From contig CAZRFU010000008.1 in assembly GCA_964599475.1 (NCBI GenBank), forward strand, positions 34,409 to 98,408: a stretch of 64,000 bases of DNA, given 5' to 3'. The DNA is from an uncultured Thermoanaerobaculia bacterium (GTDB taxonomy: Bacteria > Acidobacteriota > Thermoanaerobaculia > Multivoradales > CAZRFU01). Position 1 is the first letter of the stretch; every line of letters starts with the position of its first letter. This document shows positions 39,740 to 44,362 of the stretch, in pieces. Made by a program: the position numbers and the translations under genes. The notes under the pieces were generated by a model. It had not been told where the DNA came from. It did no database searches and worked only from the letters and a program-made list of their open reading frames with translations.

Positions 39740-42700
39740 ATGAAAGGCACTCAATCAGGCGCTAACCGCGGGGGGGCCGTCAACCTCCGGGGCATCCACT
39801 ACCAGCTCGTGGTGAGCTTCTCAGAAGCCGCAACTGCGGTTCGAGTGTTCCAGCACTCGGGCAAGGAAAGCAACTCGGAGTCGATTACCCTGATCGTGGA
39901 GCCACCCGGAGGTGGAGACAGTGCGGTCGAGTACGGCGGCCGCCGCCGCGTCCAGCAGATGAAGACCTCGACCAGCCCGTGGGCCCTGGCTCGCCTCACG
40001 AAGGCACTCTACGACCCGTATCTCGCGAGCACTTCGGATGAAAATGCTGCTGCTGCGGTCGAGCTCATCACCGACGCGGCTCTGGCCCCCAGCGCCAGAG
40101 GTCTCCCCGATGCCTTGCAGCGGCTTCGGGAGGTTGCCGCGAACGAGGGGCCCGCCGCGGCGGCGCGCGTCGAGCTCCGGTCGTGCGGGAAGAGCCTGAG
40201 CTTGCTGGACTACTTCTGCACTAAGCTGAAGCTCGGGGATGGCCTGGATCCGGTTGAGCATCAGCGAGGAGTGCTCCAGTTCCTGCGCAAATTGCAGTTG
40301 CGAACCGGAGAGGACTTCGCAGCGCACAAAGATGCGTGCGTCGACCTCGCCCGCCGACACGGGAGCGCCGACCCCGACAAGGACATCGCGGCGGTGGTCG
40401 GGTGGCTACTCGGCCACGGCAAGGACGGAGGTGGCTCGGTCACTCTGGCGCAGATCTTCGAGCGGCTCGGGCTGGCCCGTCGCGACCTCGCGCAATGGCC
40501 GTTCCTCTGCCAACTGTCCCGGGACCAGCTGATCATCGATACTGGCCGCGCCCCGATCCGCTACAACGTCACTCGTGATGCTCGAGCGTCCGATCCGTGG
40601 CCTTCGCTGCTGCTCCCCGGAGCCTACACCCCGAAGCCTCTCGTTTTTGGCGGTGCTCCCGGCACGGGAACGACCTGGCTCCTGGCGCGCTGGGCGCACA
40701 GAACGGCTGCCTTCACCCATCCGGCGTTGCTGGTCTGGCTGTCATCCGAACAGGACCCACAGCGCGACCTCGATCGGGCCGCCCGCAAGTTCGGCAATGA
40801 CATCTGGCTCCTGGATCTACCACTACCAATGCCCGCCCTGACTCGTCGCATTCGAGAGCGAGGATCCCAGATCGCCGAACCTTGGATGGTGATCTTCGTG
40901 GATGGAGTCCGCACGCCGAGGTACCTCGAACAGCTGATTGGCCTCGAGCCGGCTTCCTTGGGAGTCCAGGTAGTCGTCGCGCTCTCCCACGAGCTCGACC
41001 CGCAGTCGGAGCTCCGCTCTCACATCGAGTACATCGAGGCAAGAGGCTTCGATCCGTCCGAGGTGCTGGCCTTCCTGGAGTTACGAGAGTGTCGCAAGCC
41101 GCCTCCCCCCGACGTACGCGAGCTTCTCGCGACGCCTGCGCTCGCTGCGCTGTTCGCAGAAATCCACGATGCTGCAGGAGGCTGGCAGCCCCAGAACGAA
41201 TACGAGCTCGTCGAGCGCCTCTGGCTCCATCGTTTCGCGACTCCCCTTCCGCTGAGCGCGGACGCCATCGCCGAGATCGAGGCCCAGCGATTGCTCGCGG
41301 CAACGCCCTCGGAAGGCTCGGTCCGCCCGAAACGAGTAGCCGACTTGACCGCAGGCCAGCTCCGAGCCGCCGGCTTGCGCCAGCTGGAGCTCGACGCCCT
41401 CGAAGCCTCAGGCGCGATTCGGCGCGACCCGCAAAGCCGGAGTTACGGCTGCTCGCACGACAGGATTCGGCAGTGGGCGACAGCTGAAGGTTTGTACCGG
41501 CTGATCGCCCAAGGAGGCCTCCCCGCCGGGGATGTGGCGACATTCTGTGCCGAGATCCTCTACGGAGAGAGAGCCGCATTCGGGCTGTTTGGCTACGTCC
41601 CCGCGGATCTCTTGTGGCTCCTTTGCGATCCCGCCACCGAAGGCCACTTCGACGCGACGGTGGACGAGATCCTGAGCAAGCTCGAAGGCCACTGGCGATT
41701 TCCCCAGCAAACTCGGTGGTTGGCGACCCTCGGCGGGCGCCTGGTCCCAGCGTTGAGTCGGGGACTGCGGCGCGACGAAAGCCGGCGCGAACGCCACACG
41801 TACCGGGATACTCTCGCCCGAATCGGCGGTCGCGAGGTCACACGCCTTGCCGCCGAGCTGGTCCTGCCCGGCCAGGACCTGGTGATGGTGACCACGGGGG
41901 TCGAGCTGCTCGCAGAGCTCGAGCACCCAGGCGGGCTCGAACGGCTATGGGAACTCCACGAACAGTGGTGGACAACCGTACGTTCGAGCCCGAAGGACCG
42001 CCCGGCGGGAGCGTCGGACGCCCCCTCCTGGTACCACCTCGGCATCAGCGAGCGTGCTCTCGCCCGTTCCGTCGCACAGCGGCCAGAGTGGCTGGCGGGG
42101 CAACTCAGCTCCGCTCCAGACCTGGCCGGCGCAAGGTCGACGCTCCTGTTCCTGCTCGCACGATCTGGTGCCCGCTCCGTCTGGCTGGAGCACAAGAATC
42201 ACCTCCGAGGGTTGATCGACAACAACAGCCGAGGAGGGTTCGTGCGCTGCATCGCGGCTTTCCGCGACGAAGAAGAGATCCCTTGGCTGAAGGACCGCGC
42301 CAACCATCAAGGAGACTTCGTCGCCCCCGAAGTGCTGCGAACCCTGGCGCTGCTCGAGCCAGGAGCGGAGTTGGCCGTCGTTGATCCAGGAGGCAAGGAC
42401 GTTGCCTGGGGTCGGCACTGGTGGCTCGGCCCGTCTTTGGCGCGACAGCCCGACGCCGCCAAAGTATTCCTGCGCGACCTCGTCCTCTCCTCGGAGGATC
42501 CGGCAGCGGTACTCTGGGACTACACGGGGTTCGAGCTATGGTGGGATGAATCCTTGCTCGAGGTGCTGGTGGAGTGGGCATCTGGGAGCCTGGGACGGGT
42601 CACGAGCGGTAGCGCTGGCCCGAACGAGGACCCTCTCTTCGGCCCGTTGTCGAGCCTCGCGAGTTGCCGCAGGCTCGCGCAGCTTCGTGGGCTCTGGAAG

Positions 42701-44362: not shown

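Follow-up and report, generated by a model that had tools for sequence, protein, structure and literature searches.

What is the function of a very large protein that is encoded by a solitary gene in a variable part of a bacterial genome? The question is raised by an open reading frame (ORF) at positions 39740-44362 of a 64,000-nucleotide stretch of DNA from an uncultured Thermoanaerobaculia bacterium (hereafter, the window, to which all unassigned coordinates refer). A reading of the letters alone (the sequence-only reading) had proposed that its 1540-amino-acid (aa) product joins a nuclease, a P-loop NTPase and HEAT-like repeats in the manner of an Avs-like defence sensor. In our analysis the protein is, with a probability of roughly 60%, an innate immune receptor of the antiviral-STAND type, NLR-like and made of a single polypeptide. 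Three folds are found in it, catalytic and nucleotide-binding motifs are conserved in its family, the gene has no conserved partner and lies in a variable island, and it is under purifying selection. Its antiviral role, trigger, oligomerisation and DNA cleavage would follow by analogy with characterised receptors.

A family of large three-module proteins

The ORF begins with ATG, and translation confirms its extent as well as the position of each motif listed from the sequence, namely: GIHYQ at aa 18-22; E54, D60 and Q73-x-K75; GGAPGTGTT at aa 304-312; and MVIFVDG at aa 383-389. Its G+C content at the first, second and third codon positions (GC1, GC2 and GC3) is 0.71, 0.51 and 0.78, respectively, which is coding-like, and the surrounding sequence has 67% G+C. 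A promoter and terminator scan gave zero sigma-70-like promoter sites, and the terminator-like sites are weak. In Pfam, PADLOC and NCBIfam scans of the whole protein and of its sub-domains, HEAT_2 is the single significant match, with nothing relevant from NCBIfam. The gene and its parts, with the basis of each assignment, are as follows.

39740-44362, + strand: complete gene for a 1540-aa protein with predicted Cap4-type nuclease, STAND NTPase and HEAT modules (ORF list, translation)
39767-40609, + strand: predicted Cap4/DUF4297-type PD-(D/E)xK nuclease with helical extension, aa 10-290 (AlphaFold2 model, Foldseek)
39899-39964, + strand: predicted catalytic core, E54, D60 and Q73-x-K75 (conservation and model)
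40625-41089, + strand: predicted P-loop nucleotide-binding domain (NBD) of the STAND module, aa 296-450 (strand-helix alternation in the AlphaFold2 model, Foldseek)
40649-40675, + strand: degenerate Walker A motif GGAPGTGTT, with K311T and S307P (comparison with the family consensus)
40886-40906, + strand: Walker B strand MVIFVDG, with D388 (conservation, model)
41090-41809, + strand: predicted helical domain 1, winged helix and helical domain 2, aa 451-690, including P466 and H573-D574 (Foldseek, conservation)
41810-43039, + strand: helical middle region, aa 691-1100 (family conservation of W737, W784, W815 and D843)
43040-44359, + strand: C-terminal HEAT-repeat region, aa 1101-1540 (Pfam HEAT_2, family profile)

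An exhaustive HMMER search over 1.84 billion cluster representatives (clusters at 50% identity) assigns the protein to a family with 331 or more clusters at E<=1e-3, 111 of them at E<=1e-30; nearly all members are 1500-1575 aa long. The family hidden Markov model (HMM) aligns with aa 8-1533 of the window protein at 1065 bits. The names that were looked up for 10 representatives are either "hypothetical protein" or none. Members were recovered from metagenomes of soil, sediment and marine origin and from genomes of Phycisphaerae, and their distribution is patchy and rich in singletons. A genome scan returned three full-length relatives, with 24-26% identity, in metagenome-assembled genomes (MAGs) of Phycisphaerae. 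The sole relative found by a word-index search with the window sequence is a 91% identical protein (P0001), which is encoded in three Logan assemblies, where the order of the genes is the same; two other relatives (P0002 and P0003) are 42% identical to the window protein. When an alignment of 115 sequences was used as the query instead, the word-index search returned unrelated HEAT proteins and nothing else.

Conservation was determined using an alignment of 115 full-length members. The residues that are conserved in at least 90% of them include G18, Q22, E54, P55, G58, G59, D60, Q73, K75, W81, G305, G308, G310 and D388, and thus the motifs picked out by the sequence-only reading are not chance matches. 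The near-invariant N-terminal pattern consists of GG-x-A-x-x-x-G-[VI]-x-Y-Q, h-h-h-E-P-x-G-G-G-D and R-x-V-[EQ]-Q-x-K-[AT]-R-x-x-x-W-S, while the corresponding NTPase patterns are GESGxGK[S/T]W for Walker A and h-h-h-h-D388-[GDN] for Walker B. P466 is the sole column that is invariant in all 115 members; E487, Y488, H573, R575 and W579 are also conserved at 90% or above, the last three within an HDRLLNWA motif. Pairwise identity differs by module, being 43% in the nuclease core, 30-32% in the NTPase and 21-27% in the sensor, a gradient that fits a conserved effector combined with a diversifying sensor.

We also scanned 32 family members individually. The Pfam matches are HEAT_2 (31 members), AAA_22 (25), nSTAND_NTPase5 (13), nSTAND3 and NACHT (5 each) and Cap4_nuclease (1), and the PADLOC matches are LmuA (5 members, best 1e-6), mad8 (9) and OloA (3). 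Although weak individually, these matches all agree in direction.

A predicted Cap4-type nuclease at the N-terminus

The AlphaFold2 model of aa 1-295 has a predicted local distance difference test score (pLDDT) of 87.5 and a core topology of alpha-beta-beta-beta-alpha-beta, as in PD-(D/E)xK enzymes. E54 is located after strand 1 (aa 50-53), D60 before strand 2 (aa 61-65), and the QxK motif ends strand 3 (aa 68-75). These four residues (E54, D60, Q73 and K75) are invariant in an alignment of 51 N-domain sequences, and each is present in at least 111 of the 115 full-length members.

Foldseek returned significant matches for this model (E from 5e-6 to 1e-3) without a rival fold, namely: LmuA of Lamassu (4.9e-6); Avs3 (8dgc; 1.1e-5 over 279 columns); HamA of Hachiman; HerA-DUF4297 (1.7e-4); and Cap4 from three species (1.2e-3). 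With the exception of HamA (DUF1837), all of the 23 best matches are Cap4/DUF4297-type defence nucleases. In E. cloacae Cap4 the catalytic lysine is K74 (PDB 7yia title, K74A mutant), and the lysine of the QxK motif in the window protein has almost the same number, K75.

It should be noted that the same relationship is not seen with sequence profiles. Pfam gives zero matches for the N-terminal 200 aa of the window protein even at E<=10; its Cap4_nuclease model (PF14130) has 0 matches to the window N-domain at that threshold, and its one match among the 32 members has an E-value of 4.8e-4. Similarly, PDB searches with either the whole-family profile or an N-domain-only profile detected neither Cap4 nor LmuA. 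The nuclease assignment therefore rests on fold and motif. On these grounds, the model supports aa 10-290 as a Cap4/DUF4297-type PD-(D/E)xK nuclease domain, the very type that had been suggested from the order and spacing of the motifs.

A predicted NACHT-like STAND module at the centre

To model the centre of the protein together with the nuclease, AlphaFold2 was supplied with a 50-sequence alignment of aa 1-690, which resulted in a mean pLDDT of 87.9 and a predicted template modelling (pTM) score of 0.85. Against the PDB, Foldseek matches this model with the NACHT of NLRP3 (7e-8), NOD2 (1e-7) and Avs4 on phage portal (8dgf; 1.3e-7 over 709 columns), and further with NAIP5, NLRP9 and CED-4, at E-values of up to ~2e-5. 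The alignments with the modules of NLRP3, NOD2, NAIP5 and CED-4 extend over ~450-540 columns. By virtue of these matches, the centre of the protein is read as a NACHT-like STAND module composed of an NBD, a helical domain, a winged helix and a further helical domain; the model thus supports a NACHT-like STAND NTPase at aa ~300-690, in agreement with the P-loop and Walker B motifs that had been noted in the sequence. D388 is found in 113 of the 115 members and is located on strand 383-390 of the model. Judging by their placement, P466 would correspond to the GxP motif and H573-D574 to the MHD motif. The Pfam NACHT model (PF05729) has no match to the window protein, and its five matches among the 32 members (best 4.8e-4) are taken as below the 26.7-bit cutoff.

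A HEAT-repeat region as the candidate sensor

The proposed C-terminal HEAT-like repeats are borne out by both Pfam and structural profiles. HEAT_2 matches aa 1399-1476 with 33.5 bits, against a cutoff of 27.7, and the family profile finds alphaRep/PBS-type HEAT structures in the PDB over profile positions ~1070-1500, with E-values down to 7e-39. The C-terminal region (aa 1101-1540) is the least conserved of the family, with 21-25% pairwise identity. A weak HEAT_2 match is also found near aa 830-861, and aa 691-1100 are probably the proximal part of the sensor solenoid.

Proposed mode of action and comparison with known systems

In SeAvs3 and SeAvs7, Cap4 is sequestered in the apo state, and the binding of a phage protein leads to nucleotide exchange, upon which the proteins tetramerise via their NTPase and Cap4 domains and cleave double-stranded DNA (dsDNA) (PMC13581612). 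By analogy, the HEAT solenoid of the window protein (~aa 700-1540) would be the sensor, the NACHT-like STAND NTPase (aa ~300-690) the switch and oligomerisation module, and the Cap4/DUF4297-type domain (aa ~10-290) would act as a dsDNA-cutting effector. At rest, this nuclease would be held against the NTPase and the sensor, as in Avs3 and Avs7. A phage protein, or that of another mobile element, might then bind the HEAT sensor and cause the NTPase to open and exchange its nucleotide. Oligomerisation would in turn unite the Cap4 domains as an active nuclease, with the result that DNA would be degraded and the infection aborted.

The closest parallels in architecture are Avs3 (SeAvs3, PDB 8DGC) and Avs7 (SeAvs7; PMC13581612), which likewise place an N-terminal Cap4-type nuclease, a STAND NTPase and a C-terminal alpha-helical repeat sensor in one polypeptide, are in the same range of 1500-2000 aa, and are encoded by stand-alone genes. 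The sensor of the window protein, however, is a HEAT/alphaRep-type solenoid, whereas theirs are TPR-like; in structure, its NTPase resembles NACHT proteins and Avs4 more than Avs3; and, unlike the Avs families, it has no significant match to the PADLOC Avs models and, in the window allele, no Walker A lysine. Avs4 (SeAvs4, PDB 8DGF) is the third-best Foldseek match of aa 1-690, spans both the PD-(D/E)xK N-domain and the STAND module, and is of similar length (~1540 aa), but its nuclease is Mrr-like, its sensor is TPR-like and the sequence identity is ~10%.

A second group with this layout is bNACHT, in which a NACHT-like module is found between a restriction-fold effector and a repeat sensor (e.g. 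bNACHT25, with an Mrr-like restriction endonuclease (REase); bioRxiv 10.1101/2022.07.19.500537); REase and HEAT are both among the domain types of the bNACHT survey (bioRxiv 10.1101/2022.07.19.500537). The present family differs in that its Pfam NACHT matches are sub-threshold, with nSTAND_NTPase5 more frequent, and in that its effector is of the Cap4/DUF4297 subtype rather than Mrr. As for Cap4 of CBASS, LmuA of Lamassu and HerA-DUF4297, they share the nuclease fold and the order of motifs (G-x-Y-Q helix, E...D, QxK) with the window protein. They are, however, activated by SAVED/CARF cyclic-oligonucleotide sensing, by SMC-like LmuB or by HerA, respectively, while the window nuclease has a fused STAND module.

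Sequence models for Avs, NACHT and Cap4_nuclease thus fail to recognize the window protein, whereas comparison of the predicted fold does recognize STAND and Cap4, and Pfam recognizes HEAT. The sequence-only reading could not match the combination to a named system. This is still the case insofar as PADLOC is concerned, but the class of architecture had already been described in Avs3, Avs7 and bNACHT, and Cap4-STAND proteins are likewise on record (PMC13581612). The protein is therefore an uncharacterised member of the effector-STAND-repeat class and not a new type of system or principle. A 2026 census recognizes 589 STAND clades, 198 of which are defence-associated, mostly with TPR-like sensors, and triggers are known for only about twenty STAND families (PMC13581612). 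Animal and plant NLRs have their prokaryotic counterpart in the bacterial STAND/NLR-like receptors. With HEAT in place of TPR repeats in its sensor, and with environmental hosts rather than enterobacteria, the present family is a reasonable candidate to widen the known sensing range of bacterial receptors.

Loss of the Walker A lysine in the window allele

The lysine-less P-loop that had been noted in the sequence is real: codon 311 is ACG, i.e. threonine, in the window as well as in an independent assembly. Accordingly, the Walker A feature GxxxxGK[S/T] is present neither in the window protein (GGAPGTGTT) nor in P0001 (GGAPGMETT). It is not a property of the family, however, since the lysine is found in 110 of the 115 members, including the 42% identical P0002 and P0003. 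The window protein has K311T and S307P, P0001 has T309M and G310E in addition, and the lysine is also lost in three unrelated members. Among the 82 columns with at least 85% conservation, the P-loop changes are the sole functionally obvious deviations in the window protein. Degenerate P-loops have arisen independently in 5 of the 115 members (~4%), P0013 among them, with sequences such as GESGQDEV, GESGQGNT and SESGQGST. Judging from the alignment, loss of the Walker A lysine recurs within the family and, in the window, is a lineage-specific degeneration rather than a family trait.

Active SeAvs7 binds ATP through the Thr/Lys of Walker A, the Asp of Walker B and an Arg, and K292, the equivalent of the lost lysine, coordinates ATP in the active oligomer (PMC13581612). 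Loss of K311 should therefore weaken ATP binding. One could thus argue that the family is indeed antiviral STAND but that the window copy is disabled or decaying, with ATP binding and oligomerisation blocked and the ORF not yet disrupted. Consistent with decay, three differences fall within nine P-loop residues although the window protein and P0001 are 91% identical overall, and the NBD has the highest rate of non-synonymous substitution (dN) in the gene (0.107 vs. 0.047 overall).

Other observations argue against decay. Two diverged strains both retain an open frame along the full 4.6 kb, and the ratio of non-synonymous to synonymous substitution rates (dN/dS) between the window gene and that of P0001 is 0.31 for the whole gene and 0.27 for the NBD, far under neutrality; for comparison, it is 0.007 for MreB, 0.08 for DinB, 0.17 for PilZ and 0.35 for the neighbouring Rhs tip (see below). 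The observed proportion of non-synonymous to synonymous differences is ~1:1, against a neutral expectation of ~3:1. The remaining residues of the pocket are retained, namely: G305, G308, G310, T312, D388, P466 and H573. In addition, the ~4% of the family with independently degenerate P-loops suggests that this state is tolerated. The gene is under purifying selection and not in neutral drift. Since this holds for the whole gene including the NTPase domain, the window allele is probably still functional, with its dependence on nucleotide altered or weakened, and a decaying allele is unlikely, albeit an explanation to be kept in view.

A lysine-less allele under purifying selection offers a natural means to learn whether some STAND receptors can do without binding nucleotide. 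One may go further and suppose that Cap4-STAND-HEAT proteins form an unrecognised Avs-type lineage whose HEAT solenoid senses a component of phages or mobile elements outside the targets of Avs1-21, with the K311T allele signalling without canonical ATP binding by the P-loop; we regard this proposal as distinctly speculative and doubtful.

The divergence between the window and one of the three Logan assemblies (L001) is a mosaic. The small upstream ORF, the 264-bp intergenic region and the first 120 codons of the STAND gene (window 39172-40100) are ~98-99% identical, with a synonymous rate (dS) of 0.02, while dS is 0.40 in the NBD (window 40600-41100) and 0.10-0.21 in the other segments of the gene. 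This suggests intragenic recombination between alleles, centred on the P-loop domain.

The family gene has no conserved neighbour

In order to identify genes that accompany the family, we collected 79 metagenomic loci, using a 7-sequence subset as the query, along with genome loci, and ~75 loci were compared. A simple ORF rule served to call the neighbouring genes, and an HMM to locate the family member in each locus. The survey covered 430 ORFs lying no more than six genes away from the family member; none of their clusters is common to more than 4 of the ~75 loci, and no small flanking ORF (at least 45 aa) is common to more than 3. Hence the gene works singly, with no partner dedicated to it, and the observation that the window gene stands alone extends to the family as a whole.

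The 149 immediate neighbours include 3-4 GajA/OLD/AriA-type ATPases, 2 UvrD helicases, 5 mad3 matches and 6 HTH_3 regulators, as well as metabolic genes; some loci adjoin Gabija/OLD/PARIS-like ATPases. Such a set is suggestive of defence islands, these being counts without a background control.

Several of the results weigh against an antiviral receptor. Defence genes among the neighbours of the homologues, which the sequence-only reading had regarded as informative, do occur, but their enrichment is weak and without a background comparison, and some family loci are flanked by housekeeping genes, e.g. glutamate synthase. No family members were found on viral contigs in two scans, which were pattern searches of limited sensitivity. 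PADLOC returned 0 matches of the window protein to any defence model, and its Avs2 models match one relative only (E=0.005-0.04), with the match confined to the P-loop. Finally, the window allele is without the Walker A lysine, whose equivalent in SeAvs7 (K292) coordinates ATP.

The gene lies in a strain-variable island

The context of the gene was studied by comparing the window with related strains. Besides the STAND gene, this part of the window has the following features.

39171-48687, no strand: strain-variable island of 9.5 kb carrying the STAND gene (strain comparison, GC3)
39182-39475, - strand: small divergent ORF, possibly HicB/UPF0150-like (Pfam UPF0150-like, E=0.12)
44717-46096, + strand: orphan Rhs tip, with an RHS-associated core motif and a C-terminal domain of ~325 aa (TIGR03696, PDB matches)
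46140-47613, + strand: two paralogous ORFs, candidate immunity genes for the Rhs tip (BLASTP between the two)

Four contigs (L093-L096) have an identical MreB, are 96-98% identical to the window over the shared DNA and are collinear with it through DinB, amidase, MreB and PilZ, but the match ends exactly at 48688. Past this point they have a 954-aa SNF2-family helicase in place of the STAND/Rhs island, followed in L093 by a 329-aa AAA ATPase, a Y4kK-like protein and an S8 subtilase. The alternative cargo at this hotspot beside PilZ occupies positions 12518-19595 of L093 and extends from 3751 to the contig ends in L094-L096; the set of SNF2 helicase, AAA ATPase, Y4kK-like protein and subtilase may be another defence cassette. 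On the other side, the three Logan assemblies with the 91% identical relative (L001-L003) are collinear with the window from 39171 onward. Although assembled independently, all three break ~600 bp upstream of the STAND gene, and their first 40 bases are unlike the window, which is consistent with a left island boundary or a repeat at ~39171. Thus, the strain comparison defines window 39171-48687 as a 9.5-kb variable island, and the variable context that had been surmised from the flanking genes is now seen directly in strains with identical MreB. No tRNA was found in the window.

GC3 is lowered across the island. The A/T-ending codons attributed to the STAND gene are indeed reflected in its GC3 (0.78 vs. 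0.82-0.89 in the flanking core genes), but the effect is modest, and the ORFs downstream to ~47.6 kb (Rhs tip and immunity ORFs) are lower still, at 0.74-0.75.

The genes on either side of the STAND gene had been described as an orphan hicB and an Rhs toxin/immunity cassette. The former identification lacks statistical support: the upstream ORF matches Pfam UPF0150-like with E=0.12 and 12.8 bits, below the cutoff of 27.3, and has 0 matches in NCBIfam and the PDB. The latter is correct in part. The RHS repeat-associated core (TIGR03696) is present at aa 65-131 of the 459-aa ORF 44717-46096 (E=1.5e-21; 76.6 bits vs. a cutoff of 32.5), and in the PDB the ORF matches TccC3, YenC2 and RhsA at their C-terminal plug, but no YD-repeat shell was found in this ORF, which is thus an orphan tip only. 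Its N-terminus looks like a signal peptide, and its C-terminal domain of ~325 aa is presumably a toxin.

Do these genes form one system with the STAND gene? The four genes (the STAND gene, the HicB-like ORF, the Rhs tip and the immunity genes) are adjacent, have a lower GC3 in common and move together between the window and L001-L003. The genes are, however, divergent or 264-354 bp apart; a tblastn search finds the HicB-like protein in L001-L003 and beside no other family member; and among flanking ORFs of 45 aa or more, none recurs in more than 3-4 of the ~75 loci. A multi-gene system made up of the STAND gene with the HicB-like ORF and/or the Rhs-tip and immunity genes is accordingly highly improbable, a HicB/Rhs-coupled system being largely refuted by the neighbour survey and the tblastn result.

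The Rhs tip also raises a broader alternative, in which a STAND-regulated nuclease serves a role other than defence against phage: cell death or kin conflict tied to the Rhs module, restriction of plasmids or transposons, or a response to DNA damage. The adjoining Rhs-tip toxin and immunity-like genes would constitute a module of inter-bacterial conflict, 391 of the 589 STAND clades are not defence-associated (PMC13581612), and few direct neighbours of the family are defence genes. On the other hand, the Rhs tip and the HicB-like ORF are confined to the 91% identical relatives, and elsewhere no gene co-occurs with the family. Moreover, the structural matches of the Cap4-type effector belong to defence systems (CBASS, Lamassu, Avs, HerA-DUF4297 and, through its related HamA, Hachiman), and the patchy, singleton-rich distribution and the hotspot location fit defence cargo. 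A role outside phage defence is thus improbable, and an antiviral receptor that acts as a single gene is the reading that we prefer.

Other ORFs of the island and its relatives

The two candidate immunity ORFs (46140-46838 and 46732-47613) are 48% identical (BLASTP 8e-58), with C-terminal 70 aa that are nearly identical, and neither matches any known family. L001 is without window 46008-46892, which holds the first copy, and the 91% identical relative is accompanied by one copy, which suggests a recent duplication or acquisition of the candidate immunity gene in the window. The last ORF of the island (47367-48623) has no family match; its sequence LLLLGLGCAAT looks like a lipoprotein signal with a lipobox, and its counterpart in L001 is called as 336 aa.

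Outside the island, a 1575-aa ORF at 56462-61189 (- strand) was considered as a possible paralogue of the STAND gene and rejected, as it fails the family HMM. Its single PDB match is weak (E=5e-4) and is to a biofilm-associated surface protein. Giant ORFs are likewise found near family members in the Phycisphaerae MAGs, namely: 5750-9910 of L005 (1386 aa) and 19921-24639 of L006 (1572 aa), for which there is no NCBIfam match. The latter has a dockerin-like segment, so that it probably encodes a surface protein and not a defence factor.

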